Source: a virus (lineage: Duplodnaviria > Caudoviricetes). Taken from it: DNA of 57,770 nucleotides. Positions 1 through 30,990 of this stretch are shown one piece after another; positions within the stretch are counted from its first letter, which is position 1, and every line of letters starts with the position of its first letter. Position numbers and translations under genes: made by a program. The stretch covers positions 1-57,770 of the IMG/VR virus record IMGVR_UViG_3300010226_000007; one strand, written 5' to 3'. The notes beneath the pieces are model-generated. The model saw only the letters and a program-made list of their open reading frames with translations. It did not search any database and had not been told where the DNA came from.

Positions 1-112
1 CGTCGAGGCTGTTCTGGTCGTGCATGGCGCGGCTCCGGGCGGTACGGGGTGGCGGTATGCAGATGAGCCAATGGTGCACGATCCAGCCGACAACCCGGTC
101 CGATGGCACAGC

Positions 113-142
113 GAAGGCCCCGGTTGGTCGGCCGGGGCCTTC
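113..142. terminator. Hairpin terminator ending the transfer operon
   Basis: Perfect inverted repeat GAAGGCCCCGG-N8-CCGGGGCCTTC just past the stop of 155..442(-). Confidence 0.7.
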
Positions 143-154
143 GAGGGGGCGGGT

Positions 155-442
155 CTACTTGCCGGCGTTGTTGATGAGCCACTGGCCGTATTCGCGGTCG
201 GCGTCGGCGCGGATGTCATAGCGGTCCCAGCCGACTTCGACGGCCTGCTCGATGGCGGGCTGGACGTGGAGCAGGTAGTGCATGCGGTGCTTGCGGCCGG
301 CTCGCTGGAGGCGGGCGCTGTCGACGAGGAGGTGGACGGCGAGTTCGCGGAGTTCACGGCGGTCGTCTTCGGTGTAGGCGTTCGGGGAGGTGGGGGTGAC
401 GACGCCGTTGAGGAAGTCGGGGATGTCGAGGGCGGTGGTCAT
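155..442 (-). CDS. Hypothetical protein
   Basis: 95 aa ORF with AAGGAG RBS; last gene of the left operon. Confidence 0.7.
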   Translation of the reverse strand: MTTALDIPDFLNGVVTPTSPNAYTEDDRRELRELAVHLLVDSARLQRAGRKHRMHYLLHVQPAIEQAVEVGWDRYDIRADADREYGQWLINNAGK

Positions 443-457
443 GGGGTGCTCCTTGGG

Positions 458-976
458 TTAGAGGCCGCGGTCGGCGGCGTGTTGGGCTGTGCGGTCGAGG
501 TAGAGCAGGACGGGGGCGGGGCTGGTCTGGGCGTCGTTCCAGGAGGGGACGGTTTTGGCGTCGGGGAAGTCGCGTTGGATGGCGTCGAGGAGGAGGGAGG
601 CGGCTGAGGAGGTGAGGCCGCGGTCGCCGCGGGCTTCGATTTGGATGGCGCCGAGGATGCAGCGGGCTTCGGCTTGGTCGTCGCGGAGGTCGCCTTGGTG
701 CCAGCCGTGGGTTTCGATGTGGCGGGCGGCCTGCCAGAGGACGGCGGCGATGCGGGTGTTGTAGGGGCAGGCGTGCGGGGTGAGGATCGGGGTGAGCGGG
801 ACGACGTCGGTGAGGGCGGCCGGCGCGTTGGTGTCGATGTGGGCGGTGCGGATGGCGAACTGGGCTGCGGCTTCGTCGAGTCGGACGCTCATGGCGGCGT
901 CGGCGAGTGCGAGCCGTGCGTCGAGGTCGAGGAGCGGGGGCGCCGGGGTTGCGGGCGCGCGGGTGAGCATGGTCAT
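458..976 (-). CDS. Hypothetical protein (DUF6197-like)
   Basis: 172 aa; IETHGWHQG...CILGAI...WND pattern resembles an actinomycete mobile-element family (recalled, not searched). Confidence 0.6.
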   Translation of the reverse strand: MTMLTRAPATPAPPLLDLDARLALADAAMSVRLDEAAAQFAIRTAHIDTNAPAALTDVVPLTPILTPHACPYNTRIAAVLWQAARHIETHGWHQGDLRDDQAEARCILGAIQIEARGDRGLTSSAASLLLDAIQRDFPDAKTVPSWNDAQTSPAPVLLYLDRTAQHAADRGL

Positions 977-1063
977 GTGTGGGTTGCCTTCTGCGCGTAT
1001 GCGCGTGGTGGGTGGAAGGGGCGCTCCGGTGCTGTCCAGGCGTTGCGGGGCGCCCCGGCTTGG

Positions 1064-1480
1064 CTATCGGCGTCGTCCGCGGGCGCGGATGGCCTGGCGG
1101 GTGGTGGGGTCGCTGCCGGAGCGGACGCGCTTGTCGAGGCCGCTGATCTCGGCGTCGTCGAGGTATCCGCTGTAGTCGCCGTGGCCGAGGGGGCCGGCGA
1201 CCTGCGGGGGCGGGTCGGCGATGTTGCGCAGGCCGCGCGGGGGCGCGTCGTAGACGGGCCCGAAGTTCTGGCACAGGGTCACGGCGTCGATGCCCATGGG
1301 GCCGCTGAGCGGGGTGCCGGTGAGGGGCAGCCGGCTGGTGAAGGTGTACTCGCTGTAGGTCTTGCTGTCCTCGTAGGGGGCGAGGTTGGTCGCCATATTG
1401 AAGACGACGTAGTAGGGCTTGTTGAGCTGGAGCTGGCGGGCGAACTGCTTCGCCTGGTGGCGCTGCCAGGTGCGGGCCAT
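1064..1480 (-). CDS. Hypothetical protein
   Basis: 138 aa ORF with GAAGGAG RBS. Confidence 0.7.
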   Translation of the reverse strand: MARTWQRHQAKQFARQLQLNKPYYVVFNMATNLAPYEDSKTYSEYTFTSRLPLTGTPLSGPMGIDAVTLCQNFGPVYDAPPRGLRNIADPPPQVAGPLGHGDYSGYLDDAEISGLDKRVRSGSDPTTRQAIRARGRRR

Positions 1481-1508
1481 GAGTGTTCTCCTTCGGGTGG
1501 GTTGGGGG

Positions 1509-1697
1509 TTAGCCGATGCGGGTGGCCATGAAGGTGTGGATCGTGTAGCCGCGCGGGTAGGCCTGGTCGAGGCCGACTTCTACGGCTTTGCGGATGTTGG
1601 CTTCGGTAGCGTGGTCGGGGCCTTGGGTCTCACCGGTGACCGGGCCCTTCCGGCCGTTCGCCTCGATGAGGGCGCTCCATTTCCAGAAGCTGGCCAT
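1509..1697 (-). CDS. Hypothetical small protein
   Basis: 62 aa ORF with GGAG RBS. Confidence 0.6.
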   Translation of the reverse strand: MASFWKWSALIEANGRKGPVTGETQGPDHATEANIRKAVEVGLDQAYPRGYTIHTFMATRIG

Positions 1698-1746
1698 GGT
1701 GTTGGTTTCTCCGTTTCGGGATGGTTTGTTCGGGTGGACATAGGGT

Positions 1747-1887
1747 GGTTTGCCCCGGACTGAACCCCTTCTGGGGTCGGACAGGGGGTGGACATCGTCC
1801 GGACAGCGTCCGGGTTCCGTCCGGCCTGTCCGGGTGGACAGTCCGGGGCATATCCGGCGTTGTCCGGGTGACAGTCCGGGGCAAACC
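1747..1887. repeat. clt-like locus (putative TraB recognition repeats)
   Basis: Eight TCCGG cores in 1798-1879 (- strand CACCCGGA/AACCCGGA/GCCCCGGA variants), a ~24 bp direct repeat (1827-1850, 1861-1883) and a perfect 16 bp inverted repeat (1747-1762/1872-1887), directly downstream of traB. Confidence 0.7.
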
Positions 1888-1905
1888 TCACATACCGTCG
1901 GCGAT

Positions 1906-4104
1906 CTACTCGCCTTCGAGGAGCTTCAGCGCATCGGCGATGTCGGCCTTCTGGTAGCCGTTGACGCGCCCCACGCCCTCGATGTCGACCTTGACGGTGC
2001 CGCCGGCTCCGGCGTCGCGCAGGAGCTTGCCGAGCCGGGTCTCGGTCATACCTCCGCCGATGACCTCGGCCATCTCCTTCACCTGGGCGACGTCGCGGCC
2101 GAGGTCGGCCATGACCTTCATGCAGCCGCGGAGCGCGTCCATCTGCATGCGCTGCTGCGGCGTGTGGTTGAGGACGTTCCGACCGGGGACACCGTCCCGC
2201 TTCGGCCCGCCGGCCGCCGAAGACAGGCCAGTGGCGTTCAGGAGGTGCTTCTCGATCGGGTCCTCCCACTGCCCGGTCAGGCGGCCGTGCTTCTCGCGCA
2301 GGTTGGCAGCCCGTTCGTTGATCAACGTCACCTCTTCGCGCTCGTCCTGGTCCAGGTCGAAGGAGCGCGCCTTGTCGGTGACGCCGACGAACGGGTTGAC
2401 CAGCCAGCCGAGGCCGGGACGCGGTGGGTCGAACTTGGAGGCGTCCCGGCCCATGCCTGATGAGCCCCTGCCGAGGATGGCGTTGGACTGGTCGGCGGTG
2501 TCGACGCGCATCGCCCACTTGGTGGTGCAGTTGACGGCGAGGGCGGTCGGGATGACGTCGCTGCTCGGGTACTGAGTGATAAGCGCCATGAGGATTCCGG
2601 CGCCTGCGGCTACGGCGGAGAGCTCGATCAGCGCTTCGAGGATCTCGTCCCGCAAAGGCCTGTCCGGCCTTGTGTACGTGGCAAGTTCGTCGATGACGAG
2701 CAGTTCGAGGCCGCCGATCCCTTCGATGGCCTGCGGGACCAGCTTGCTCTTGCCGAGCCGGCCGAGTTCCGCCTCGCGCCGGTTCTTGTCGGCGATGAGT
2801 GCGTGCAGGAGCGCGAGCAGCCTGTGCGCGTCGGGCTTGAAGTACGTGCCCGCGACGCCCGCCTTGGCGTAGGGGTCCCATTCGCCGTTGTTCTTACCTG
2901 CGACGATGCGGTGGTTGATGCGCACGTCGAGCGTTGATCCAGCGACCAGGTTCGCGGCGCCGACTCCCTTTCCGGAACGGGTTCCGCCACCGATGATGAA
3001 GTTGGAGTCACGGATGGGCAGGCAGATGGTGTTGCCGCGCTTGCCCCAGCCGACCGGCACGCCGTCCTTGAAGGCGTCGATCTGCCCGGACTTCCTGACA
3101 AGCGGCGAGGGGCGGACCTCTTCGAACGGGTCCTGGTCGGCGATCCACAGGCTGGTGCGGACTGCGGATCCCTTCTTCTCGATGTCGACCATGACGGAGT
3201 CGCGGCCGATCGCCCCGGCGAAAACCTCGATCTTGTCCTGGAGCTTTGCGACGGTCTGACCTGCGGGAAGGTCGAAGACGACGGTAGTGCTGCCGTCCTT
3301 CTCGCGCTGCGGCACGGCCAGGATGGCGAGTTGTTCGTCCCCTTTCACCATGCCGATCTTCCGGAGGGCTTCCTCAAGCTGCGACACGGTGAGCGCGGGC
3401 GGCGGTGGGGCGTTGAAGTCCCGCACCCCAGGCTGCGGTTCGGCCTTCACCATGTCGACGGGGGTGGCCAGCTGCTCCATCGGAGCAGGCGCAGGCTGGC
3501 CGTCGACGAAAGGGCGCGACACGAGGTACCAGCCGTAGCCAGCCGCGGTACCGAGCACGGCGAGGATCATCGGCTGGCCGTGCGCGGCATTTTCGATCGC
3601 GGCACCGGTCACCGGAAGGGCGGCCAGGCTTCCGCCGGCCAGGGCGAGGGCACGCCCGGCCCGCTTGCTGTGGCGGACGCTGTCGATCTCACGGTCTGTG
3701 GGCGGCAGGACGGGCTGCGCCTGCAGTGATGCCAGCTTCGATTCGGCGGCTGCGACCTGCCCGGCGAGCGCCGTCAGCAGGCCGGTGCTTCCGCCCCGCT
3801 CCCCGAGCTCGGCCTGCGCCTTGGCAACGTGCAGGCGGGCGTGGAGGCGGGCGACGTGCGCTTCGAGGTGGGCGACCTGCTCGGCCCGCTTGCGCTCCTT
3901 GCGTTCGGCGGCGTGCTGGATGGCGTCGACAGGGTCGAGGTCGCCGCCGGCCAGCCAGTCGCCGATGCGGGCTCGGGCGTGACCGCGCTGCTGCGCGAAG
4001 GCGGCCTTGGCGCGGTCGCCGCGGGTGGGCTGGTCAGCCTGCTCGGTGAACGGCGGGCCCGTGTGGGGCTGGTAGTCGGGGTGCGGCGGGATCTCGGTGG
4101 CCAC
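1906..4104 (-). CDS. traB: TraB-like FtsK/SpoIIIE DNA translocase
   Basis: 732 aa; two N-terminal hydrophobic helices, Walker A GGTRSGKG, Walker B LLVIDE, TQYP motif, C-terminal winged-helix-like region; architecture of Streptomyces TraB. Confidence 0.85.
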   Translation of the reverse strand: MATEIPPHPDYQPHTGPPFTEQADQPTRGDRAKAAFAQQRGHARARIGDWLAGGDLDPVDAIQHAAERKERKRAEQVAHLEAHVARLHARLHVAKAQAELGERGGSTGLLTALAGQVAAAESKLASLQAQPVLPPTDREIDSVRHSKRAGRALALAGGSLAALPVTGAAIENAAHGQPMILAVLGTAAGYGWYLVSRPFVDGQPAPAPMEQLATPVDMVKAEPQPGVRDFNAPPPPALTVSQLEEALRKIGMVKGDEQLAILAVPQREKDGSTTVVFDLPAGQTVAKLQDKIEVFAGAIGRDSVMVDIEKKGSAVRTSLWIADQDPFEEVRPSPLVRKSGQIDAFKDGVPVGWGKRGNTICLPIRDSNFIIGGGTRSGKGVGAANLVAGSTLDVRINHRIVAGKNNGEWDPYAKAGVAGTYFKPDAHRLLALLHALIADKNRREAELGRLGKSKLVPQAIEGIGGLELLVIDELATYTRPDRPLRDEILEALIELSAVAAGAGILMALITQYPSSDVIPTALAVNCTTKWAMRVDTADQSNAILGRGSSGMGRDASKFDPPRPGLGWLVNPFVGVTDKARSFDLDQDEREEVTLINERAANLREKHGRLTGQWEDPIEKHLLNATGLSSAAGGPKRDGVPGRNVLNHTPQQRMQMDALRGCMKVMADLGRDVAQVKEMAEVIGGGMTETRLGKLLRDAGAGGTVKVDIEGVGRVNGYQKADIADALKLLEGE

Positions 4105-4166
4105 TGGCCTGGTCCTTCCTCGGGTCGGGGGCGGGGCCCGGGGCGGGCCCCGCCGAGGGGTGCGGC

Positions 4167-4760
4167 TTAGCCGAGGCCGCCGAGCATCGAGCCGAGCGAG
4201 CCGAGCAGCGAGTTCGTCATCTGGGCGCCCATGCCGCCGATGACGGTGCCGGACAGAGCGATGCCGAGCAGGCCGACGAGGACGGCGTCGAGCGACTTGA
4301 TGTGCCCGTGCTTGACCTTGAAGAACACGATGATCGACAGGGCGAGGATGGCGACCACACCGGTGGCGACCACACCGCCGGACGCCTGGGTGGTGATCTG
4401 CTGGTTGTAGCCGGCCGGGACCTGGCCCGTGTTGTAAGGGTTCTGCAGCTGGGTGCTGGTGCCGTCGTCGGCCGTGTTGCCGGTGGTGATCCCGGCCGGG
4501 TCCTGGGTGTCGGTCCGGTACGCGGCGACGGTGGCAACGTGCTCGGCGGTCGCGTGGTGGCCGTAGCCGCCCATGCCGGTGATCCGCAGCGTGCGCCCGT
4601 CGGGCAGGGTCACCGGGGCGGTGACCGCACGCTCGGCGACGGTGTGCATCTCGACGGCGGACGCGGCCGGCGCGGCGGCGACCCCGATGGCCGCGGCGCC
4701 GCCAAGGAGGGCGACGGCCGCACTGCCCGACACGGCAATCTGACGGAAGGTGATGCTCAT
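4167..4760 (-). CDS. Secreted/membrane protein of the transfer module
   Basis: Signal-peptide-like N terminus (AxA) and two C-terminal hydrophobic helices; directly upstream of traB. Confidence 0.7.
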   Translation of the reverse strand: MSITFRQIAVSGSAAVALLGGAAAIGVAAAPAASAVEMHTVAERAVTAPVTLPDGRTLRITGMGGYGHHATAEHVATVAAYRTDTQDPAGITTGNTADDGTSTQLQNPYNTGQVPAGYNQQITTQASGGVVATGVVAILALSIIVFFKVKHGHIKSLDAVLVGLLGIALSGTVIGGMGAQMTNSLLGSLGSMLGGLG

Positions 4761-4784
4761 GACTGGACTCTCCTGATGGTGGGG

Positions 4785-6065
4785 TTAGTTGTCGTTCGGG
4801 CGGGAGTTCTTACGGCGCAGCAGCTCGCTGTGAGCGCGGCCAGCGGCGCGGTGATAGCGAGGTGTGTCATTGGGCTTCCGGCGGGGCGGAACGGGCTTGT
4901 ACGAAGAGCGGGGTGTTTGGACCGCACGCTGCGCATTCGTGTTCTTGCTGAGGGTGTTGACGGGCATGCCGGAGCGCGCCGCTTCGACACGCTTCTCCGC
5001 CTTCCGCCGACCGGTGATGATGTCCGCAGACTCGGCCGGGTCGGCGCCTTCGATGTCGCGGTGCGCGCGCTTCCAGACGGCCTCGGTGACGGTCGTCTCA
5101 CCAAGAGCGGCAGCGATCTTCAAGGCGTGCTTCCACACCTCCGGGAACATGTCCTCGCGGTCCTTTGCGAGCTTCTCTGCCGCCGCCTTCGCCGCCTCCT
5201 CCGCAGCCTGCTTGTCGGCGGCCCGCTTCTCCTCGTCGGCGGCTCGTTGCGCGGCTTCCGCCTTGGCCGCCTTTTTGGCGGCCTTGCGTTCGCGGCGGGT
5301 GGGGACGCCGTCGCGGCGGCGGATGCGACCGTGCTCGTGGAGGTCCCATACGCCGGGGCCTGCGATGGAGGCGAACGCGGTCGCCAGGGCCGTACCGGGG
5401 TCGAAGCTGTGGAGGCCGTGGTAGAGGTTCACGCCCGCGGCGACGAAGGCCAGCAGCCAGACGATGGCGCGGTAGTGCCAGACCGGCCGCCGGTTGGCGA
5501 CGGCGGCGCGGGCGCCACGATGCACGACCCAGGCCGCACCCTCCAGCATGATCGGGGCGGCGGCCATCCACGGCGCCTTCGGGTTCCAGAAGAAACTCAT
5601 CTGGACCGGCAGGGACACGATGCCGCACACGACCGCGAACTTGATCGCATAGGAGCGCCACTTGTCGTCGGCGTCCTTCACCTCGGCCGCGGCGTTCTCC
5701 TCGGCCTGCTGCTGCTCCTCGTCGGCGCGCTGCTCCTTGGCGCGGGCGCGCTCGATGTCCTCGCGCTTCTTGTCCGCCTCGGCGATCTTCGCGCGCTGCT
5801 CGGCCTGCTCCCGCTGGAAACGCAGAGCGGCACGCTCATTGGCGATGGCCTGCTTCTCGTTCTCCAGCCGCTGCGTCTCCGCCTGCTCGGCGGCGAGAAT
5901 CTCGGCGGCTTTCGCCTCACCCTCGGCCTTCTTGCGCAGCGCTTCGGCTTCGGCGGCGGCGCGAGTCCGGATCGCCTCCGCCTCGGCCAGCGCCACCGGA
6001 TCGAACCGGGGCTCGGGCGAGGTCAGCGACATCCCGTTGACCTTCTTCTCGACGGAGGTGGTCAC
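4785..6065 (-). CDS. Spd-like (SpdB2/DUF2637-type) multi-TM coiled-coil protein
   Basis: GTG start with AGGAAGGA RBS; long Ala/Glu/Lys coiled coils around about four TM helices (APIMLEGAAW, AGVNLYHG). Confidence 0.65.
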   Translation of the reverse strand: MTTSVEKKVNGMSLTSPEPRFDPVALAEAEAIRTRAAAEAEALRKKAEGEAKAAEILAAEQAETQRLENEKQAIANERAALRFQREQAEQRAKIAEADKKREDIERARAKEQRADEEQQQAEENAAAEVKDADDKWRSYAIKFAVVCGIVSLPVQMSFFWNPKAPWMAAAPIMLEGAAWVVHRGARAAVANRRPVWHYRAIVWLLAFVAAGVNLYHGLHSFDPGTALATAFASIAGPGVWDLHEHGRIRRRDGVPTRRERKAAKKAAKAEAAQRAADEEKRAADKQAAEEAAKAAAEKLAKDREDMFPEVWKHALKIAAALGETTVTEAVWKRAHRDIEGADPAESADIITGRRKAEKRVEAARSGMPVNTLSKNTNAQRAVQTPRSSYKPVPPRRKPNDTPRYHRAAGRAHSELLRRKNSRPNDN

Positions 6066-6162
6066 GCTGATCGGTGTCCTTCCTGGACTAGGTGGGGTTT
6101 GGTAGGCGCCGTGGCGGCGAGGCCGCGGGGGAACGAATCCCGCCGCCACGGCAGTCAGGGGG

Positions 6163-6327
6163 TCAGGCGGCCAGGGGCAACCGCAGACCGAGCAGCTCGT
6201 CGACGAGCCGCGGACCCAGCGGAGTGATGGCGTCAACGCCAGCCGCCTGATCGAGGATCAGCCGCCGTGTCTCCGCGTCGGCGTCGATGAACTGGGCGAT
6301 CAGACGAGCACGGTCCTGAATAGACAT
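6163..6327 (-). CDS. Hypothetical small protein (54 aa, not in ORF track)
   Basis: MSIQDRARLIAQFIDADAE... with AAGGAA RBS. Confidence 0.55.
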   Translation of the reverse strand: MSIQDRARLIAQFIDADAETRRLILDQAAGVDAITPLGPRLVDELLGLRLPLAA

Positions 6328-6420
6328 GGGGGTTCCTTAGAAGGTGAAGGGGGTGGGGTGGGCACCGCGGGCGGCGGGACGGGGGGAGCGTTCAATCGCC
6401 GCCCGCGGCGGTCTAGGGGG

Positions 6421-6681
6421 CTAGCGGCGCCGGCATGCCTCGTCGTCGATCAGCTGCAAGTCGAAACCGTGCCCGGCAGCAGTCACCACCGCCCGGTCGA
6501 ACTCACGCACCGCCCGACGCCAGCCCGGATCCGTAGTGTGGTCACGGCCCTGGGCCTTCAGGCGCTCCTCGACCACACGGCAGGCATTCGACTTATCGGC
6601 CGCATCAGCCAAGGCCGCGGAAGCACGACGCTGCTCATCCCGCCGGTACGCCGACCATTCGGCACTCTGCGCGTCAGCCAT
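6421..6681 (-). CDS. Hypothetical protein
   Basis: MADAQSAEW... with GAGG RBS; overlaps the upstream gene. Confidence 0.55.
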   Translation of the reverse strand: MADAQSAEWSAYRRDEQRRASAALADAADKSNACRVVEERLKAQGRDHTTDPGWRRAVREFDRAVVTAAGHGFDLQLIDDEACRRR

Positions 6682-6898
6682 CCGAACCACCTCGCTCGGC
6701 ATCGAGCGCGGCCAGCAGATCGGCCAGCACGTAGTGCAGCCCATAGGCAGCACGGATCATCTCGTCCTTGTCGTGAATGTTCGCCGGAGCCTTCTCAGCA
6801 AGAACCTTCCGAGCCCGGTCAATGGCCTGCTGCAACGCCGGCACGACCGAATGCGCATCCCTCTCCGGGTTGTACAGCGGGTCGTAAGAGGCACTCAC
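6674..6898 (-). CDS. Hypothetical protein
   Basis: 74 aa, 4 bp overlap with the upstream gene. Confidence 0.6.
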   Translation of the reverse strand: MSASYDPLYNPERDAHSVVPALQQAIDRARKVLAEKAPANIHDKDEMIRAAYGLHYVLADLLAALDAERGGSDG

Positions 6899-7161
6899 GC
6901 CGCACCGCCGATCAGGTCCAGGCGGCCGGCCGCGGCGAGCGTGGCACGCGCACCCGCCATCAGATCCTCGGCGTGGGCGAGGCTGTCCGCGTCCAGGTCC
7001 GACAAGGTGCCGGCCTCGGCCAGCGCCGCCAACTGCACCGCACGCACCGTCGCCGACTCGTAGACCGTGACGGCCTCGACCAGCGGGAAGTGCGCGGCGA
7101 TACGGGACGCCGCATCGGCGGCCAGGGCGGGGAGCGGGGCGGTGGGGGTCTCGGTGCTCAT
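6895..7161 (-). CDS. Hypothetical protein
   Basis: 88 aa, ATGA overlap. Confidence 0.6.
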   Translation of the reverse strand: MSTETPTAPLPALAADAASRIAAHFPLVEAVTVYESATVRAVQLAALAEAGTLSDLDADSLAHAEDLMAGARATLAAAGRLDLIGGAA

Positions 7162-7568
7162 GCCGTCACCGCCTTGAGGGCGCGGCCCATGGTGCGGATC
7201 TTCTCGGCGAAGGCGACGAGGTTGTCGGCGAACGTCTCGGCGTGCTCGGCGTCCATGTAGGAGCCCTCGGCGCTGCTGCCGTCCTCGATGAAGAGGAAGG
7301 GGCGCCGCATCTCCTCGTTGCTGCTGAAGGGGTCGATGCCGAGGCGGGCGTAGGCGAGGAGGTCCGGGGTGCCGTTGCGGCGCGGGGCCTCCAAATCGGC
7401 GAACTCGCCGGAGTGCCAGACGTCCTCGATGAAGCGCTGATTATCCCGAACATGATCAATAACACACCATGTCGGACATTCCAGGTAGCACCGCTGGCCG
7501 TCGATGAGGGCCGGGACGATGCGGATGTCTGCCGCGCTAGTAGCGGCGGACTGTACGGTGGTCTGCAC
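7158..7568 (-). CDS. Cys/His protein (DUF6907-like), first gene of the transfer operon
   Basis: CPTWCVIDH...WH motif; GGGAGA RBS. Confidence 0.6.
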   Translation of the reverse strand: MQTTVQSAATSAADIRIVPALIDGQRCYLECPTWCVIDHVRDNQRFIEDVWHSGEFADLEAPRRNGTPDLLAYARLGIDPFSSNEEMRRPFLFIEDGSSAEGSYMDAEHAETFADNLVAFAEKIRTMGRALKAVTA

Positions 7569-7672
7569 GGTTAGGTCTCCCTAGTGTGAGGGCGTTCCGA
7601 CCTAGGCCCCGTTTCGGTGTTCGCAGCACCGGGCGGGGCCGTTTTGTTGGCCGCTTGCCTGCCAACGACTCC

Positions 7673-7702
7673 ACCGTAGGGAACATGGTGTTCCCGCGTC
7701 AA
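7673..7702 (-). promoter_or_regulatory. Sigma70/HrdB-type promoter with operator palindrome
   Basis: - strand TTGACG-N18-TACGGT; spacer holds GGGAAC-N5-GTTCCC (7679-7695). Confidence 0.6.
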
Positions 7703-7792
7703 GCGCAGGGACCTAGTATTTTTCGCCGCGTCCGCGTAACGTCATGTCACGTGATTACAGACGACCGGACGACGAATGGAACACTGTGTGAC

Positions 7793-8023
7793 ATGGACAA
7801 ACGATCACTGGAGCAGCTGGCGCAGCAGTTCAAGAAGTCCAAGGACAGGACCGAGAACCTGCGCAAGACGTTGGCGACCGCCATCCGGTTGGCCGACGAA
7901 GACGGTGTGCCCCAGAAGGACATCTGCGAGGCGACCGGATACACCCGCCAGCAGGTCCGCCGGATCATCGTGTCCCCCGAGCCGGACGAGGACGGGACCA
8001 CTGGACTCGCAGGCCAGGGCTAG
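7793..8023 (+). CDS. Small HTH regulator, probable repressor of the transfer operon
   Basis: GVPQKDICEATGYTRQQVRRII HTH; divergent from the operon. Confidence 0.7.
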   Translation: MDKRSLEQLAQQFKKSKDRTENLRKTLATAIRLADEDGVPQKDICEATGYTRQQVRRIIVSPEPDEDGTTGLAGQG

Positions 8024-12386: not shown

Positions 12387-13544
12387 TCAGGCGGCCATGG
12401 GTGTCTGCTGGGCGAGCGGGATGCCGGTGGCGGCGGACACGATGTGCGCGGCCAGCAGCGGCGGCACGGCGTTGCCGATCTGCTCAAACTGCTTGGTCTT
12501 CGTTCCGTGCCACGGGTAGTCCGGACGGAACGACTGCAGGACCGACGCCTCTTCCACCGTGATCCGCACGGTCTCGGGGCTGGCGAACTGGGACTCGCCG
12601 CCGGCGTCGCGGTTGCGGTGGCCGGGCGGGGAGATCCGGTCGGTGGCGCACACCGTGGTCGCCGGGCGCTTCAGCACCCACTGGCCGCCCGCCTTGGATG
12701 TGAAGGCTGGCGCGGGTGCGGCGTAGGGGTCGGCGGTCTGCCTGCTGCCGTCCGCGCGCTGATCGCGGTTCGTGTGCAGCACCCACGACCGGGTCTTCTC
12801 GGTGAGCGCCCACGAAGGCCGGTCGGCGGGGAACTCGTTGCCGCCGGCGGTCTTGCGGTCGCCGCGGGTGTTGACGGTCAGGCCCTCGGTCCAGCCGAGC
12901 GCTTCGGCCATGGATACCCACGGCTGCAGGCACTCGCCGAACAGATCCCACTCAGGCGCCTTGGCGTGCGTCGGATCGGGCGCGGTGACCTTGCGGATGC
13001 GGGAGGCGATGAGGATGGCGCGCTGCCGGGTCTGCGGCACCCCGTAGTCGGCGGCGTTGAGGACGCCCGCCCACGTGCTGTAGCCCCACTGCTGGAGGTA
13101 GAGGGCGTACTGCTTCCACAGCGGGAGGACGTCGGGGACTTCCTCCATGCACACCCACTCCGGGCGCAGGTCGTACAGCCAGCGCATCGGCTCGGCGGCC
13201 AGCAGCGACCGTTCGTCCCTGCACTGGGCGAGCAACTCGGCGCGGGTGTCGCGGCCGTGGGCGAGGTCGTGGACGGCGCGCTGCACGAGGGGCTGGTCGG
13301 CGAGGCCGCCGCGCTTCCCGGCACGCGACCAGGCCTGGCACGGCGGGGACCAGATCTGTCCACGCGACTTCCCCTTGAAGGGGGCCGTCGGATACTGCGA
13401 CACGTCGCACTGGATGGCCAGGTGCCCGGCGGCCACCCGGGTTCGGCAAGCGGCCGTGTCGAACTCCAGGCCGACGTCGCGGAGTCCGAGGATGCGGAGC
13501 CCCTCAGACCAGCCTCCGGGGCCGGCGAATCCGTCGATGATCAC
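12387..13544 (-). CDS. C5 cytosine DNA methyltransferase
   Basis: Motif I FAGPGG, IV PPCQ, VI EEV, VIII QTRQR, X QIGNAV. Confidence 0.9.
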   Translation of the reverse strand: MIIDGFAGPGGWSEGLRILGLRDVGLEFDTAACRTRVAAGHLAIQCDVSQYPTAPFKGKSRGQIWSPPCQAWSRAGKRGGLADQPLVQRAVHDLAHGRDTRAELLAQCRDERSLLAAEPMRWLYDLRPEWVCMEEVPDVLPLWKQYALYLQQWGYSTWAGVLNAADYGVPQTRQRAILIASRIRKVTAPDPTHAKAPEWDLFGECLQPWVSMAEALGWTEGLTVNTRGDRKTAGGNEFPADRPSWALTEKTRSWVLHTNRDQRADGSRQTADPYAAPAPAFTSKAGGQWVLKRPATTVCATDRISPPGHRNRDAGGESQFASPETVRITVEEASVLQSFRPDYPWHGTKTKQFEQIGNAVPPLLAAHIVSAATGIPLAQQTPMAA

Positions 13545-14064: not shown

Positions 14065-14747
14065 CAGGCGGCCTCCCCGTGCTCGAAGCGGGCGGTGCGC
14101 CCGAGCGTGTAGGCCGCCTCAAGGTGCGGGCCGACGGGTATGCCCGGATAGAGCATGGGCTTCGTCAGGTCACCCTTCGGGGGCTTCGTCGAGGGGCGGC
14201 CAATCGGGATCGGCATGGCGCCCCAACGCTGGAACGTCTCCAGGTCCCGGGGCTTCATGGCGCCCAAGTCGGCGCCCAGGCGCTCGAGGTCGTTCGCTGC
14301 CATGAGCCAGCTCAGGCCGTACAGGACTGGCGGGAAGGTGCACTCGTCGGAGCAGCGATGGAGTGGGGAACGGAGGAGTTCGTCGCAGTACGCGCCGCGG
14401 GTGACGCTGTGGTGCAGTGGGGCGGCGCCGTTGGTGTCGGGGATCTGGCCGAGGATGAGCAGGTTCGTGCTGCCGCCGTCGGGACCCAGGCCCTTGGTGG
14501 GGTGGACGGCGTCGGCGAGCAGGGACAGGTCGAGCCAGTCCTGGCTGCCTTTGACCTCGACCCACCAGCCGATGTCGGGCAGGTGGAAGTCGGGCAGGTA
14601 GGGACGGCGGCTTTCGCCTACGCGGTAGCCCTGCGGTTCGTACTCCCAGCGGATACCGAGGTCGTTGAAGACGTGCGCCCAGCGGGCTTCGAGGCGGCTG
14701 CGGAAGTGATGGCCGGAGTAGTACGTGTTGATCGCCTGGATGGTCAT
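14064..14747 (-). CDS. PD-(D/E)XK nuclease-like protein
   Basis: FRSRLEARWA...WEYEP...YLPDF...WVEVKG. Confidence 0.65.
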   Translation of the reverse strand: MTIQAINTYYSGHHFRSRLEARWAHVFNDLGIRWEYEPQGYRVGESRRPYLPDFHLPDIGWWVEVKGSQDWLDLSLLADAVHPTKGLGPDGGSTNLLILGQIPDTNGAAPLHHSVTRGAYCDELLRSPLHRCSDECTFPPVLYGLSWLMAANDLERLGADLGAMKPRDLETFQRWGAMPIPIGRPSTKPPKGDLTKPMLYPGIPVGPHLEAAYTLGRTARFEHGEAA

Positions 14748-16159
14748 GCGGCGCCTCCGAGCGAGGAGGTGGGCGACCAGCTGGGCGGGGCGATGGAGCG
14801 GAGTCGGCCGAACTCGCCCTGGAAGTTGAGGGTGATCTCGCGGCCCTGGCCGCCGTTGCGGTTCTTGCCGACGATCAGGTCGACCTTGCCCGCGCTGGGT
14901 CCGGTGTCGGATCCGTCGGCAGCAAGTTCCCGGTGCAGCAGCAGGATGACGGAGGCGTCCTGCTCGATCTGCGAGGAGTCCTTGAAGTCGGTGACGAGGG
15001 GCTTGCGTCCGACGCTGCCGCGGTTGAACTGAGCGAGCGCGATGACGGGGACGGCGAACTCGTCTGCGATCAGCTTGAGTCCGCGGGAAATCTTTGCGAC
15101 TTCCTGGGCCCGGTTGGCGTCGCCGCCTTTGGTGGACTCAGGCGTGATCAGCTGCATGTAGTCGACGACGACGAGGCCGGGCCGTTGCCCCTGCGAGACC
15201 ATCCAACGGACGCGGGCACGGATCTTCGGAACGGTGAGGCCAGCGGAATCGTCGAGGATGAAGTTGTCGGCGTTCTGGATCCGTTCGGACACCTTGGCGA
15301 TGCGCACCCAGTCGTCGTCGGTGAGCCTGCGCCGGACGAGGTGGTCGAGCTTGACGCCGGCCTCGGCTGCGGTGAGGCGAGCGATGAGCTCTTTGCGGGT
15401 CATCTCCATAGAGGCGAACAGGACGGGCTTGCCGCGCCGCATAGCGACGTGAGCAGCCATGTTCATCCCGAGGAGGGACTTGCCGCCGCCGGTCGCGGCG
15501 CCGACAACGGTGAGCTCCTTGGGCTTGAACTGGACGACCTCGTTGAGGTCTTTCCACGGGGAGTCCAGGGCGTCCTTGTCGACACCCTCGTTGAGCTCGT
15601 CGACGAAGGAGGCCCAGTTGTCGGCAACGGACAGGCTCTCTTCGACCTGCCCGCCAGTGGCCTCGACGAGGAGGGCCTGCATGTCGGCCAGGGCCTTGTC
15701 GAGGATGACCTCGGGCTCGGCTTCGGCCATGCGGGCGGCGGCGCTGGCCTCGGTGTTGATCTGCATGATGCGGCGCAGTCGGTACAGGCGCACGACGATC
15801 TCTGCGTACCACTCGGTGTTTGCCGCGGTTGGGATCATCTGCACGCAGTGGTGCAGGTAGGAGGCGCCGCCGATCTTTTCCAGGTCGCCGTTGCGCTTGA
15901 GGTAATCGGAGACGGTGATCGGGTCGGGGCGGACGCCGGGGGCGCCGTGCAGGTCGAGGATGGCCCGGTAGATCGTCTCGTGCTTCGGCCAGTAGAACGC
16001 GGGCAGTTGGCCGATGATGCGCTCGGCGTCGTTGACACCGAGGGGGGCGAGCAGCATCCCGCCCATGACGGCCTGCTCGGCGTCGAGGTTGCGCGGCACA
16101 TCGGGCTCGGCCGGCTGGTCGTAGTCGTCGGCGGGGGGCTCGTCGTACAGGTCGGTCAC
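14744..16159 (-). CDS. dnaB: Replicative DnaB-like helicase
   Basis: AEQAVMG N-domain, GAATGGGKS, SMEM, VDYMQL, AQFNR, IEQDA, KNRNG. Confidence 0.92.
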   Translation of the reverse strand: MTDLYDEPPADDYDQPAEPDVPRNLDAEQAVMGGMLLAPLGVNDAERIIGQLPAFYWPKHETIYRAILDLHGAPGVRPDPITVSDYLKRNGDLEKIGGASYLHHCVQMIPTAANTEWYAEIVVRLYRLRRIMQINTEASAAARMAEAEPEVILDKALADMQALLVEATGGQVEESLSVADNWASFVDELNEGVDKDALDSPWKDLNEVVQFKPKELTVVGAATGGGKSLLGMNMAAHVAMRRGKPVLFASMEMTRKELIARLTAAEAGVKLDHLVRRRLTDDDWVRIAKVSERIQNADNFILDDSAGLTVPKIRARVRWMVSQGQRPGLVVVDYMQLITPESTKGGDANRAQEVAKISRGLKLIADEFAVPVIALAQFNRGSVGRKPLVTDFKDSSQIEQDASVILLLHRELAADGSDTGPSAGKVDLIVGKNRNGGQGREITLNFQGEFGRLRSIAPPSWSPTSSLGGAA

Positions 16160-17067
16160 TTGCGGGCTCCTTGGTTGTGTGGGTGGCAGATGGCGCACGG
16201 GATGAGGACGGGGAGGCCTTCGTCGTCTTCGACTTCGCGCAGTCGGGTGTCGGGGTGGCAGTCGATGTCGCCGCAGTGCGGGCCGGCCTGGGCTGGCGAC
16301 GAATTGCGGCTGGGCGGGACGTAGCCGGGTGGCAGTGGCGCGAGTTGGCGCCAGGCGGGAATGAAGTACTTGGCGGACTCGACGCTGGTGCGCGCGGCGA
16401 CCTTGACGGCTGAGGCGACCATGGCGTCGATGCCGGACTTTTTGATCAGGGCTTCGATGACGAACCACTGGTTGCCCTCGAAGGGCCAGCGGATGTAGCC
16501 GAGCCCGGCTCGGCTCATTGCATCGACGAGGGGACGGACGTTGCGGGGGATGCCGTAGTCGTACTCGCCCTGCGCACCCTCCGGCTCCCCTTCTTGCTTG
16601 CTGGGAATTGGGGATGGGGAGTGTGGGCCTGATTCCGGCCCACTAGAGGGCCTGATTCCGGCCCACTCTGTACCGGATTCCGGCCCACTAGCGTGATCAT
16701 GGTTGGTGTCTAGTGGGCCTGATTCCGGCCCACTACGGGTGGTGTGAAGATCTCCTAGTGGGCCTGATTCCGGCCCACTAGCGACGGACGGGCGGATGAA
16801 TCCGACGGCCTTCGGAAGGCTGTAGAGGGACGGGCGGGTCCCCTTTCCCTGCTCGATGATCTGAAGCTCGCCGTCCTCGACAGCCTTCTGGACCGCCGCC
16901 TTCGCCACGGACCTCGAGGCGTTGAGAGCTCGCGTGAAGTCGGCATAGCTGAGCCGTGCCTCGCACGACGAAGTGCGCACCTGGTCCGCCACAAAGAGCA
17001 GGGCGAGCCGGGCGTTACCCCTGGACTGGGAGTGGTTCCACACCCAGTGCATCGCGTCGAGGGTCAC
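16156..17067 (-). CDS. Phage replication initiator (N-terminal wHTH)
   Basis: Coupled to dnaB; wHTH-like N terminus; internal SGPESGP repeats encoded by DNA iterons. Confidence 0.75.
   Translation of the reverse strand: MTLDAMHWVWNHSQSRGNARLALLFVADQVRTSSCEARLSYADFTRALNASRSVAKAAVQKAVEDGELQIIEQGKGTRPSLYSLPKAVGFIRPSVASGPESGPLGDLHTTRSGPESGPLDTNHDHASGPESGTEWAGIRPSSGPESGPHSPSPIPSKQEGEPEGAQGEYDYGIPRNVRPLVDAMSRAGLGYIRWPFEGNQWFVIEALIKKSGIDAMVASAVKVAARTSVESAKYFIPAWRQLAPLPPGYVPPSRNSSPAQAGPHCGDIDCHPDTRLREVEDDEGLPVLIPCAICHPHNQGARK
16623..16780. repeat. Palindromic iterons, putative replication origin
   Basis: Five copies (two perfect at 16711-16735 and 16756-16780) of TAGTGGGCC-TGATTCC-GGCCCACTA. Confidence 0.75.
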
Positions 17068-17200: not shown

Positions 17201-17224
17201 ACGGCTCTTGTGTATCCTGGCCGC

Positions 17225-17509
17225 ATGGATGAGAGGAAGGTCCGCGAGATGGGCGTCTCCGACGCCCGCGCCAACATGACCGACGTGATTGCCGAGGCTC
17301 GGCTGCTCGACGTCGACTTCCTGCTCACCCGCCGCGACAAGCCGCAAGCCGCGCTCATCTCCCTCAAGCGCTACGGCCAAGCCCGGACGAACGCAGACCT
17401 CGTGGCCCAGCTGCGCACGGTCTTCGAGGAGGACACGTCGGTTGCGAACACCTTCCGCGTGCACTACTCGACGCTCTACGACGGCGTCATGGCCGCCGAC
17501 TCGGACTGA
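17225..17509 (+). CDS. Phd/YefM-family protein, no toxin partner
   Basis: MGVSDARANMTDVI...LLTRRDKPQAALIS. Confidence 0.75.
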   Translation: MDERKVREMGVSDARANMTDVIAEARLLDVDFLLTRRDKPQAALISLKRYGQARTNADLVAQLRTVFEEDTSVANTFRVHYSTLYDGVMAADSD

Positions 17510-27564: not shown

Positions 27565-28962
27565 ATGCCAGGCTATATCGAGGATCGCTGGTACAGGAAA
27601 GGTCCGCCGGACCCGGACGACCCCAAGAAGAAGCCGACAAAGATCCCCACTGCGCTGCACGGCAAGGGCAAGCGGTACAAGGTCACCGGCATCCCCGGCG
27701 TCCGGTCCAGGTCATTCCCGGACGGCAGCCTCGCCGCGGCGAAGAAGTGGCTCGCCAACGCTCAGACCGACAGCAGCCGAGGCGAGTTCTTCGATCCCCG
27801 CGACGGCTCCATCACGCTCGACACCTACGTGCGTGACCACTGGTGGCCCACCACCCGCTATCCGCCCACGACCAAGGCGTCCGTGTGGTCGAAGGTCTCT
27901 AACCACATCCTCCCCTACGCCGGGGCCCTGCCCCTGAACCGCATCGGCTTCGAGGAAATCCGGGCCTGGCAGAGCTGGGCCGAGCGGCGCATCGACGTCG
28001 GCACCCTGGTCGTAGCGCGAGCCCACTTCTCGACCATCCTGCAGGCTGCCCACAAGGGCAAGCGGATCCCCGTGAACCCGTTCCGGGACGACGACCTCAA
28101 GGCGCCCCGGCGGCCGAAGTCGAAGGCGCTCGCCTGGGATCAGGAGACCGTGCGATCGGTGCGGCTCGCCCTGCCTGAGCGGTACCGCATCCTTGCCGAC
28201 CTGGCCGTCGGGGCCGGCCTGCGCCAGGGCGAGACGTTCGGCTTCTCCCCCGACGACATCGACGGCGAAGACCTCAACGTGGTTCGGCAGATCATCAAGG
28301 TGAAAGGGCGCTTCGCCTTCGCCCCGCCGAAGGGCAACAAGGAGCGGGTGGCGCCGTGCGCCCCCGAACTCGCCGAGGCCGTCAAGGAGTATGCGAACCG
28401 CTTCCCGGCCGTCGAGGTGACGATGCCGTGGGTCGACCCCGACCGGCCGAACCTCGCCTGGGAGCAGCGGCCGCAGCGCACGGTCCGTCTGCTGGTCACC
28501 ACACAGTTCACGAACGGCGTCAACGGTGGCGCGGTCACGAGGGACACCTTCAACGACCGGCAGTGGAAGCCGGCCCTGCGTGATGCCGGGCTGATCCCGC
28601 CGGCCGAGGTCGAATGGATGGAGCCGACGCGCGGCAAGCAGCCCTGGCGCAAGGAGACGTGGCAGATGCCCCGCGAGTACGGCTTCCACGTACTGCGGCA
28701 CACCTTCGCTAGCGTGGTTCTGGCTGAGGGTGAGACGATTACTCAGCTGGCTGCCTGGCTGGGGCACGGTGATCCGGCGTTCACGCTTCGGACCTACGTG
28801 CACTTCATGCCGAGGTCCGGCACGAGAGGGCGGGCGGCCATCGGGCGGTTCATGGTCGGTGAGCTTTCCGGGGCGGATGAGCTCCCTGGGGAGGCGGCTT
28901 CAAATGGATCTCCCCACATTCTCCCTGGCGTTGAGGATCTTGGGAGCGGCGACCAGTCGTGA
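27565..28962 (+). CDS. int: Tyrosine integrase
   Basis: GLRQGE, K (PKG), HVLRHTFAS, LGH...TLRTY catalytic motifs. Confidence 0.93.
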   Translation: MPGYIEDRWYRKGPPDPDDPKKKPTKIPTALHGKGKRYKVTGIPGVRSRSFPDGSLAAAKKWLANAQTDSSRGEFFDPRDGSITLDTYVRDHWWPTTRYPPTTKASVWSKVSNHILPYAGALPLNRIGFEEIRAWQSWAERRIDVGTLVVARAHFSTILQAAHKGKRIPVNPFRDDDLKAPRRPKSKALAWDQETVRSVRLALPERYRILADLAVGAGLRQGETFGFSPDDIDGEDLNVVRQIIKVKGRFAFAPPKGNKERVAPCAPELAEAVKEYANRFPAVEVTMPWVDPDRPNLAWEQRPQRTVRLLVTTQFTNGVNGGAVTRDTFNDRQWKPALRDAGLIPPAEVEWMEPTRGKQPWRKETWQMPREYGFHVLRHTFASVVLAEGETITQLAAWLGHGDPAFTLRTYVHFMPRSGTRGRAAIGRFMVGELSGADELPGEAASNGSPHILPGVEDLGSGDQS

Positions 28963-29857: not shown

Positions 29858-30091
29858 GTGCCAGCCCCCGATCAGCCGAAATGGATCATCGACGCCCGCA
29901 GAGCCGTCGGCGACCGCATCCGAGTCCGGCGCCTGCACCAGAACATGACCCAGGAGAGCCTCGCCCACGAGGCCGGCGTCGACCGGTCCACGGTCCAGCG
30001 CATGGAGAGCGGCGCCGAGATGAAGTTGAGCCACCTGCTGCTGGTGGCGCACGCACTGCGGGTACACGTCACCGACCTCCTGCACGGGTAA
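29858..30091 (+). CDS. XRE HTH regulator
   Basis: MTQESLAHEAGVDRSTVQRMESG. Confidence 0.85.
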   Translation: MPAPDQPKWIIDARRAVGDRIRVRRLHQNMTQESLAHEAGVDRSTVQRMESGAEMKLSHLLLVAHALRVHVTDLLHG

Positions 30092-30232: not shown

Positions 30233-30580
30233 TTACCGTCCAGGGCCCGACCCTACGCACCCCCGCAGCAGCTGCGCCGCCTCGGCAAGCGTCTTCACAT
30301 GCAGCGCCGCAGACCGCAGCCCGAGCCCCAGGTCCCCGCACAGCGCGCCCTGCGCCTGGAGGAGGGCGGTCTCGCAGCGCTGCCAGTCGATGGTGTGCCG
30401 GCTCAGGCGGGACTGCTGGCGTCGCACGTCCTCGATGAGGGGCCGTATCTCGCGGACGAGTTCGGCGCGCAGCTCGTGGCAGCGGTCGATGGTGGGGAGG
30501 ATGCCGGCGGCGGCCAGCCCTTCAGCGATGAGCGCGTCGAGGGTCTGGCGGGGTGCGGCTCTCTTCGTAGGCTGGGTCAT
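30233..30580 (-). CDS. Hypothetical protein (DUF6415-like)
   Basis: 115 aa helical; LG.GLRSAALHV..LA pattern (recalled). Confidence 0.55.
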   Translation of the reverse strand: MTQPTKRAAPRQTLDALIAEGLAAAGILPTIDRCHELRAELVREIRPLIEDVRRQQSRLSRHTIDWQRCETALLQAQGALCGDLGLGLRSAALHVKTLAEAAQLLRGCVGSGPGR

Positions 30581-30678
30581 TGGTCGACGGTCCTGTCGTC
30601 GGCTGCTCCGGGGTCGCTGGGCCGCGGCCCCGGGGCGCTAGGTAGCTGGGTCGTGCAATTTCACGATACCCCTGCGGG

Positions 30679-30740
30679 ATAGGCGGTATAGGCCGTCTAG
30701 GTCGACTCGTCTCGCGTGTCCGGCTAGGCCCACCTACCTT
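30679..30740. promoter_or_regulatory. Putative GntR operator
   Basis: Repeated TAGG(C) motifs (ATAGGCGGTATAGGCCGTCTAGG; CTAGGCCCACCTA) upstream of the GntR gene. Confidence 0.4.
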
Positions 30741-30747
30741 CACGATC

Positions 30748-30990
30748 ATGAGATGGGAGCCGGAGGTGCCACGCTGGCGGCAGGTGTTCGCCGTGATGAC
30801 CGAGCGGATCGCCGACGGCACCTACCCACCCGGCGGCCGGCTGCCCTCCGCGATGGCGATCTGCGGCGAGTTCGGGATCTCGCAGGTGACGGCGAAGCGC
30901 GTGCTGACGGAGCTACGGAAGGCTGGGCTCGCGGAGATGCAGCCCGGCATCGGCACCTTCGTCACGGAACTCCCGCAGCCCGGTGCATGA
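30748..30990 (+). CDS. GntR-family wHTH regulator (DNA-binding domain only)
   Basis: IADGTYPPGGRLPS...EFGISQVTAKRVL..L...G.GTFV. Confidence 0.88.
   Translation: MRWEPEVPRWRQVFAVMTERIADGTYPPGGRLPSAMAICGEFGISQVTAKRVLTELRKAGLAEMQPGIGTFVTELPQPGA

Follow-up and report, generated by a model that had tools for sequence, protein, structure and literature searches.

Between positions 1732 and 1887 of the 57,770-bp virus record IMGVR_UViG_3300010226_000007 (Duplodnaviria; Caudoviricetes), which was analysed over its whole length and is referred to here as the window, a dense array of short repeats directly follows a traB-like gene. This gene (1906–4104, minus strand) encodes P0001, a 732-amino acid translocase for double-stranded DNA of the FtsK/SpoIIIE type. 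We propose that the array is probably the cognate cis-acting, clt-like docking locus of the phage's own TraB-type translocase. A sequence-only reading of the same DNA had already suggested a cognate transfer locus at this place. This suggestion is upheld by the position of the array beside a gene for an FtsK/TraB-type protein with a predicted winged helix, by the clt-like character of the repeats, by their presence in all 37 distinct homologous loci and by a repeat word that follows the C-terminal tail of the translocase, whereas the argument from likeness to the 8-mers of plasmid pSVH1, on which the suggestion had partly been built, has been weakened.

The basic inventory of the array is as the sequence-only reading had given it. 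Eight TCCGG cores are found on the plus strand at 1798, 1809, 1820, 1829, 1842, 1853, 1863 and 1875, i.e. within 82 bp, with spacings of 11, 11, 9, 13, 11, 10 and 12 nucleotides (nt), and seven of the eight read GTCCGG. The 16-nt inverted repeat bracketing them is indeed perfect, with GGTTTGCCCCGGACTG at 1747–1762 pairing with 1872–1887 at 100% complementarity and with 109 nt in between. The direct repeat, when read by eye, consists of 1827–1850 (24 nt) and 1861–1883 (23 nt), two copies that are one single-base indel apart; a gapless repeat search recovers it in pieces only. With its nearest arm 18 nt past the stop codon (1906–1908), the array also lies directly 3′ of traB, as had been stated. 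The limits formerly assigned to it, 1747–1887, take in no more than a part of the element; its inverted half extends to approximately position 1732.

Taken as a whole, the element (1732–1887) is mirror-symmetric and comprises approximately 13 units with the core GGAC/GTCC at a phasing of approximately 11 bp, namely eight forward units of the form N(C/G)CGGAC, approximately five inverted ones and, at the centre, the palindrome GTCCGGAC. On the sense strand of traB, counted from the stop codon, the forward units read GCCCCGGAC, CACCCGGAC, ACGCCGGAT, GCCCCGGAC, CACCCGGAC, AGGCCGGAC, AACCCGGAC and TGTCCGGAC, and all eight have the core CCGGA in common. Seven of them (GCCCCGGAC to AACCCGGAC) make up the traB-proximal arm (1805–1880, minus strand). 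The eighth, TGTCCGGAC, belongs to the central palindrome (1797–1804), where the orientation of the units flips and where other loci show GACCCGGGTC. The traB-distal arm (1733–1793, plus strand) carries the inverted units GGTGGAC (1733–1739), CCGGAC (1755–1760), TCGGAC (1777–1782) and GGTGGAC (1787–1793), whose GGAC cores are 21, 22 and 11 nt apart, with the last one 11 nt from the GGAC of the palindrome; on the sense strand of traB these units appear in the order GTCCACC, GTCCGAC, GTCCGGG and GTCCACC, down to approximately 1732. The 16-nt inverted repeat is simply the outermost forward unit plus one inverted unit, each with its flank. Beyond the element follow a leader with a GGAG ribosome-binding site (1698–1731, minus strand), in which a block AAACC..CGAAACGGAG is kept in most of 10 aligned loci, and the next open reading frame (ORF), which encodes 62 amino acids (1509–1697, minus strand).

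An array of this kind is not expected by chance. The total of TCCGG words in the window is ordinary (264, versus 265.6 ± 17.6 in shuffled sequences); the maximal same-strand count per 90 bp is eight and is reached at the array, and the next real cluster has four. Among 300 dinucleotide-preserving shuffles, the largest cluster had two cores in 4 cases, three in 246 and four in 50, and with eight same-strand cores versus at most four, a chance origin was rejected. A coding function of the array was rejected too, since the indels between homologues are not multiples of three and no ORF with a high G+C content at third codon positions runs across it. An Rfam search with the array region gave no match, and a promoter and terminator scan of positions 1700–1905 called neither a terminator-like site nor a sigma-70-like promoter; where an intrinsic terminator would require a T run, the central hairpin is followed by ACCCCC. 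Across the window, the related word GTCCGGG(T/G) occurs 20 times on the plus and five times on the minus strand, a skew for which codon usage may account, since most genes lie on the minus strand.

For a comparison between loci, homologues of traB with their downstream DNA were collected from viral contigs (nine), a plasmid (one) and species-representative genomes (10 and then 35, partly overlapping), which together with the window gave 51 entries and, after collapsing identical arrays, 37 distinct loci. In each of these 37 loci a repeat array directly follows the traB stop codon. In the 30 loci with arrays of the GGAC class, neighbouring units of like orientation are spaced by 9–13, 20–24 or 32–34 nt in 171 of 217 cases, with peaks at 11 nt (70 cases) and 12 nt (25 cases), and forward units lie 0–100 nt and inverted units 90–170 nt past the stop codon. 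In an alignment of 13 sequences the GGAC/GTCC tetranucleotides are invariant and the spacers variable, i.e. the repeats show the pattern of a putative protein-binding site. Four further homologues from Streptomyces and Kitasatospora genomes (L053–L056), whose motors are only 34–43% identical, also have a two-armed array in the first 200 nt past the tra stop codon, although one composed of other words (CCTGGGAC/GTCCCAGG and CCCACAC/GTGTGGG); thus, the layout is distributed more widely than this phage lineage.

The array is also linked to the translocase in that the repeat word tracks the last approximately 35 residues of TraB, i.e. the wing and the last helix, with not a single mismatched pair in the 37 distinct loci. 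Where the wing reads RVNGY, RRNGY or RVQGY (30 loci), 5–14 GGAC plus GTCC words are present in 30 of 30 arrays and at least three CCGGAC plus GTCCGG words in 26 of 30. The single locus with an RTTGY wing has six copies of TAGGAC/GTCCTA, the three loci with QVRGY have zero or one GGAC and GGTGGAT/ATCCACC in its place, and the three loci with NPRGY or NPRGF have six to nine copies of TGCTC/GAGCA (the CTGCTCG word) and no CCGGAC. These classes do not follow the phylogeny of the motor. In a maximum-likelihood tree built from no more than the motor domain (36 rows; L010, which covers 155 residues only, was left out) the three QVRGY loci require three changes, and each adjoins RVNGY loci: L006 groups with L005 (100/99), L041 with L012 (98/84), and L029 falls inside the clade of the window (100/99). 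Two other sister pairs in this tree are L051 with L049 and L017 with L021 (both 100/99). Between such sisters, identity is 90–95% in the motor, 76–88% in the linker, 11–75% in helices H1–H3, 16–59% in the wing and 54–61% in the array. Motors that are nearly identical thus carry tails and arrays that have diverged, and by the evidence of these sequences tail and array have been swapped together as a cassette, repeatedly and independently, with a break at the domain boundary. We consider the covariation of repeat word and tail to be good, but not decisive, evidence that the two belong together. L029, in which a traB 64% identical to that of the window is combined with a QVRGY-class array, is found on a metagenome-assembled contig labelled Kofleriaceae (Myxococcota); as the other named hosts are Streptomyces or Kitasatospora (one contig being labelled ‘Actinobacteria bacterium OK074’), mis-binning seems likelier here than a real host jump.

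The protein itself can be assigned with the help of motifs and structural models. Its translation contains a Walker A motif (GGGTRSGKG, residues 372–380) and a Walker B motif (VIDE, 470–473), and it matches the FtsK/SpoIIIE-like family PHROG 1358 (E 4.6e-26) as well as FtsK in a phmmer search against the PDB (E 4e-4); the match to FtsK in NCBIfam is weak (E 0.009). An AlphaFold2 model of the motor (residues 230–646), built from 51 sequences, has a mean predicted local distance difference test score (pLDDT) of 94.5, and its best Foldseek match is FtsK (2iut_A; E 1.9e-16, TM score 0.59–0.60, 409 columns), followed by the conjugation coupling protein TcpA and by EssC/EccC ATPases. As modelled, the TraB-like protein has an FtsK-type motor fold. 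As regards an N-terminal membrane anchor, a simple hydropathy scan finds one weak segment at residues 152–170; a hydrophobic stretch at 488–511 lies inside the motor. The C-terminal residues from approximately 647 to 732 (1909–2166, minus strand) form a candidate winged-helix domain with the predicted recognition helix TETRLGKLLRD and a wing ...GRVNGYQK. A model of the last 135 residues, derived from 36 sequences, is confident over residues 50–135 of these 135 (pLDDT approximately 90) and shows helices (H) and strands (S) in the order H-S-H-H-S-S-H. Foldseek lists for it weak matches (best E 0.066), the majority of them to DNA-binding proteins with a winged helix, and the best VIA-align match is the winged helix–turn–helix (wHTH) domain of Rex (5zz5_A; Z 7.8, root-mean-square deviation 2.6, 70 residues), with many winged helices of the MarR, ORC and Z-alpha types following at Z 5.4–6.9. 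The protein is therefore predicted, with middling fold scores, to bear a C-terminal winged helix.

A number of observations weigh against the array being the docking locus of this protein. In a Pfam scan the TraB-like protein matched no family at E ≤ 0.01, and against the NCBIfam equivalog model plasmid_TraB (NF041214) it reaches 19.2 bits versus a cut-off of 800. The Tra protein of pIJ101, which has been proven by experiment, served as a control; it has no plasmid_TraB match at E ≤ 0.001 and a weak FtsK match, so that failing this model says little and the model covers only part of the functional family. The winged-helix matches are generic and middling, and Z values below 8 can reflect a common arrangement; the gamma domain of FtsK is not among the 50 VIA-align matches listed for the C-terminal domain. 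The pSVH1 8-mer GACCCGGA is matched exactly by none of the units. The sequence-only reading had described the minus-strand words as close to it, and six copies with one mismatch do occur in the array (five on the minus and one on the plus strand), but the exact word is absent from it, and all 12 exact copies in the window lie elsewhere. Moreover, sister loci use TAGGAC, GGTGGAT or CTGCTCG and distant ones CCTGGGAC or CCCACAC, so that the resemblance to pSVH1 is most likely incidental; together with the 19 bits versus 800 for plasmid_TraB, this weakens the likeness as an argument. The covariation, too, is confounded. Since the wing codons lie within approximately 100 bp of the array, recombination will move both together whether or not they interact. 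Two natural chimeras, L008 and L013, combine H1–H3 of the QVRGY type with an RVNGY wing and last helix, and have CCGGAC arrays, so that class membership goes with the wing and last helix and not with the predicted recognition helix, which is also exactly what linkage alone predicts. On the strength of sequences and models, TraB is the putative binder of the array.

Which gene owns the array can be asked by comparing its neighbours, i.e. the genes of the window, with those of the 16 loci for which longer flanks were at hand. The ORF for 62 amino acids past the array has a homologue in none of the 16, and a gene for a 138-amino acid protein is downstream in 12, upstream in two and absent in two. 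Genes beyond the array vary and the array stays with traB, which is thus its constant neighbour. Upstream in the traB operon lies a gene for an SpdB2-like membrane and coiled-coil protein (4785–6032, minus strand; start codon uncertain), of which a homologue is found upstream of traB in 15 of the 16 loci, the sixteenth having no upstream DNA. For this protein the match to Pfam DUF2637 is under threshold (E 0.013), an atlas cluster ‘putative SpdB2 protein’ scores 0.87, and BLASTP against SpdB of pIJ101 gives E 2e-4 over 50 residues; the assignment is thus a lead rather than firm. Between this gene and traB, a 197-amino acid membrane protein with three hydrophobic segments by hydropathy is encoded (4167–4760, minus strand), with homologues in 11 of the 16 loci. 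The order of these three genes mirrors the spd–traB order of Streptomyces plasmids. At the plasmid locus, L011, only the traB and SpdB2-like homologues are common out of nine window genes compared, and the array layout is the same.

These comparisons also bear on other functions that such an element could have. It could be a structural hairpin, i.e. an I-shaped terminator without a U-tract or an RNA-stabilizing stem–loop at the 3′ end of the traB mRNA, with the repeats as by-products of a long imperfect palindrome. Its place directly past the stop codon would suit this, and so would its folding, which in turn speaks against a docking locus: the sense-strand RNA reaches −93.8 kcal/mol versus −70.1 ± 5 for shuffles (z −4.73), single-stranded DNA folds with a z of −7.41, and pairing in the central stem (columns 110–112/117–119) is kept by two-sided changes in five to six of 13 sequences. 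However, folding 13 loci to a consensus yields a weak structure (−20.2 kcal/mol; covariation term −0.13), and the outer 16-nt stem is not kept, L010 having two uncompensated mismatches and L008 a decayed left arm. A hairpin would also leave the phasing of approximately 11 bp, the invariant GGAC cores amid variable spacers and the concerted word changes unexplained, and neither the terminator scan nor Rfam called anything in the region. We therefore consider a hairpin as the essence of the element unlikely; a terminator role is likely an extra function and not the main one. The units could instead be operators at a downstream promoter, bound by the GntR-type helix–turn–helix (HTH) protein encoded at 30748–30990 in the window or by the product of a neighbouring gene. 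The array is intergenic, the leader and ribosome-binding site of the next gene are conserved, and the central GTCCGGAC has the GT..AC palindrome form typical of GntR operators; there is also the precedent of the GntR regulator TraR of pSVH1, which is reported to bind repeats in a spd promoter region (PMC4447253). Yet the gene past the array varies among loci and the array does not leave traB, the promoter scan called no sigma-70-like site in the region, and the word forms no second cluster at any other promoter of the window, the next best being an unrelated palindrome at 16.6 kb. In addition, the word changes with the tail of traB even at 90–95% motor identity, and the plasmid L011, with only traB and the SpdB2-like gene in common, has the same layout, all of which makes an operator function improbable.

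Iterons and parC-type centromeres typically show short, phased repeats flanked by inverted ones, and a primase–polymerase gene (57171–57755) would be close to the array if the record closes on itself. As a replication origin or partition centromere, however, the array would stand beside neither a replication initiator nor a ParA/ParM-type gene in library scans of the window, positions 1700–1900 have no AT-rich stretch, and a better origin candidate exists in approximately five palindromic units of approximately 24 nt at 16620–16790, directly upstream of the helicase gene. The phage encodes an integrase and seems to be an integrative one, and in all loci the array follows traB and not replication genes; such a function thus seems very unlikely. 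Terminase recognition sites, too, are often repeated words, and on a circular map traB is a few kilobases upstream of the packaging genes, so that accessory pac or cos sites for a small terminase subunit have to be considered. But the array is approximately 3 kb from the gene for the large terminase subunit in the window and approximately 6.3 kb in the L010 record, and related loci keep the array with terminases that differ or are undetected with the window query. The layout is shared by plasmid L011 and by the chromosomal loci L053–L056, and in the genome that holds L011, the only one of these searched, no phrog_9 terminase was found; a packaging signal can therefore hardly be what the array is. 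A docking locus of the translocase is what remains best in line with an array that accompanies traB through changing surroundings.

The genetic setting is that of a phage. The record is classed as linear, has 69% G+C and an estimated completeness of 92%, and profile scans of its proteins reveal a full siphovirus gene set on the minus strand, with the large terminase (54932–56683), portal, protease, scaffold, major head protein, connectors, major tail protein, tape measure (42264–46688), endolysin and holin. A lysogeny block on the plus strand encodes a tyrosine integrase (27565–28962), a cI-like HTH protein (29858–30091), the 80-amino acid GntR-type HTH protein and a serine invertase (32822–33418), and excisionase-like and antirepressor genes are oriented opposite to it. 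With the integrase in mid-record, the gene order appears to be that of the phage and not the integrated one. Thus, the record looks like that of a complete temperate siphovirus. Of nine related viral records, six contain, besides the traB homologue, a phrog_9 match to the large terminase subunit, and six of the same nine are classed as proviruses. In the L010 record the terminase gene starts approximately 6.3 kb past the traB stop codon, in agreement with the circular order of the window. One host genome has a terminase of 38% identity approximately 15 kb from traB, and another has an integrase of 49% identity approximately 25 kb from traB, as in the window; the terminase of the window found no match in two host genomes carrying traB homologues, which fits mosaic structural modules. 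Homologues of traB form more than 120 protein clusters at a threshold of at least 66% identity, with Streptomyces in every organism name among those listed, and tblastn finds TraB relatives on 69 plasmid records, 59 of which are from Streptomyces. Among deposited phages, megablast with positions 1–8000 of the window gave no match, and tblastn of P0001 against 50,697 phage records gave no close homologue and remote FtsK-like matches in five Bacillus and Staphylococcus phages.

Several other features of the record may be mentioned. A DUF6415 protein and the GntR-type HTH protein are encoded beside the cI-like repressor (30233–30990); on plasmids of Streptomyces, tra genes are controlled by regulators of the GntR type (TraR/KorA). 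The early region includes a C-5 cytosine DNA methyltransferase gene (12387–13544, minus strand) and a fragment matching Phd/YefM-like antitoxins under the Pfam cut-off (17210–17509, plus strand). Next to the gene for a DnaB-like helicase (14744–16468, minus strand), the non-coding stretch 16620–16790 holds a second, unrelated array of palindromic units of approximately 24 nt and of the type TAGTGGGCC..GGCCCACTA, which may represent an origin of replication or a block of operators.

How does the array compare with known transfer loci? The clt of plasmid pWTY27 is described as a 16-bp stretch of traA together with the 159 bp next to it; it contains two inverted repeats and four direct repeats of 7 bp, which are of two kinds, is footprinted by TraA and is needed in cis for transfer, and pJV1 is reported to have nine direct repeats of 9 bp along with two inverted-repeat pairs (PMC3583192). 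The phage element resembles both in being a non-coding block of 150–175 bp that abuts the 3′ end of an FtsK-type tra gene and contains direct repeats of 7–9 bp together with inverted ones (PMC3583192). It differs from them in belonging to a temperate tailed phage, in its two opposed arms around a palindrome, in the strict phasing of approximately 11 bp and in the word N(C/G)CGGAC. TraB of pSVH1 is stated in the same source to read repeated 8-bp motifs via helix alpha3 of its C-terminal wHTH domain (PMC3583192). With this system, the TraB of which is membrane-associated, the phage module has in common an FtsK-like translocase with a predicted C-terminal winged helix, the CCGGA core and six 8-mers (five forward, one inverted) one base off GACCCGGA (PMC5133688, PMC3583192, PMC4447253). 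It departs from it, again to the disadvantage of a docking locus read in the pSVH1 manner, in that the repeat class follows the wing and not helix 3 and that sister loci use unrelated words. A further comparison is with the gamma domain of FtsK and its FtsK orienting polar sequences (KOPS): common to both would be an FtsK motor fold and a winged-helix tail that reads oriented 8-mers converging on one point. KOPS, however, are spread over the whole chromosome and converge on dif, whereas 13 units are packed into 155 bp here and the listed fold matches do not include the gamma domain.

Conjugative plasmids with phage genes come close from the other side. Plasmid pZL12, or phage ZL12 (GQ919031.1), likewise combines tailed-phage genes with an FtsK/SpoIIIE-type tra gene and adjacent genes for membrane proteins, and its Tra is remotely similar to the TraB-like protein (pairwise E 0.005). 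It is, however, a 90-kb plasmid with ParAB and not an integrating 58-kb phage. It is reported to transfer by conjugation and to require tra and two adjacent genes for this (PMC3583192). As an analogue of the array itself pZL12 was rejected, since one simple hairpin and no repeat array is found past its tra gene. SpdB2 homologues have been noted in the actinophages phiC31 and VWB, a parallel to the SpdB2-like lead in the window, in a passage that mentions neither a translocase gene nor a cis site (PMC4447253). For pSAM2, an actinomycete integrative and conjugative element, it is stated that no clt motif has been described (PMC9513070), and FtsK-like genes of Streptomyces phages are mentioned without a function in two papers (PMC13587820, PMC11536984). 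In a literature search that had most subscription journals outside its reach, we found no published account of a tailed phage that has a translocase together with a cognate repeat array. What appears to be new relative to work in print is a putative site of the clt type, carried by temperate tailed phages, in which two phased arms go together with a specificity cassette that can be swapped.

If the array is a docking locus, its operation may be envisaged as follows. After induction or infection, an early operon would provide the SpdB2-like protein, the small membrane protein and TraB, which would assemble into a membrane-anchored FtsK-like ring. The C-terminal winged helices would read the N(C/G)CGGAC units, which at their phasing of approximately 11 bp face each other from two arms around the palindrome, and the motor could then pump the phage DNA, in double-stranded form, through septal cross-walls or where hyphae are in contact. 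A more far-reaching scenario, which we regard as conceivable but rather doubtful, is that a widespread lineage of temperate Streptomyces siphoviruses has a second, capsid-free mode of transmission. Here, upon induction, the excised circle would be docked by two opposed TraB rings, one per arm, and be extruded as a loop through SpdB2-lined pores at septa or hyphal contacts, so that the phage would spread through the mycelium or to a neighbour like a conjugative plasmid, and the swappable tail–array cassette would serve as an incompatibility or specificity system by which co-resident elements are prevented from hijacking one another's pumps. That similar clusters in the host chromosome might allow its mobilization, as had also been suggested, found no support: runs of three CCGGAC words 3–8 nt apart number 7, 11 and 4 in three host genomes with related prophages versus 10, 4 and 2 in a backwards-read control, a scan too crude to exclude mobilization, and one of the host clusters is a prophage's own array.

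To our knowledge, Streptomyces conjugation is the only known process in which double-stranded DNA is transferred between cells by just one FtsK-like pump acting with a short site in cis. A pump with an SpdB2-like partner and a matched site, if conserved as a module of temperate phages, would blur the line between phages and conjugative elements, and it could account for phage DNA crossing the cross-walls of a multicellular host. Furthermore, the four repeat words found on near-identical motors would be natural reagents for studying how TraB-type pumps read DNA, the chimeras L008 and L013 could help to locate the specificity determinant, and the two-armed, phased layout may bear on the question of how a ring-shaped motor engages DNA that is a covalently closed circle.

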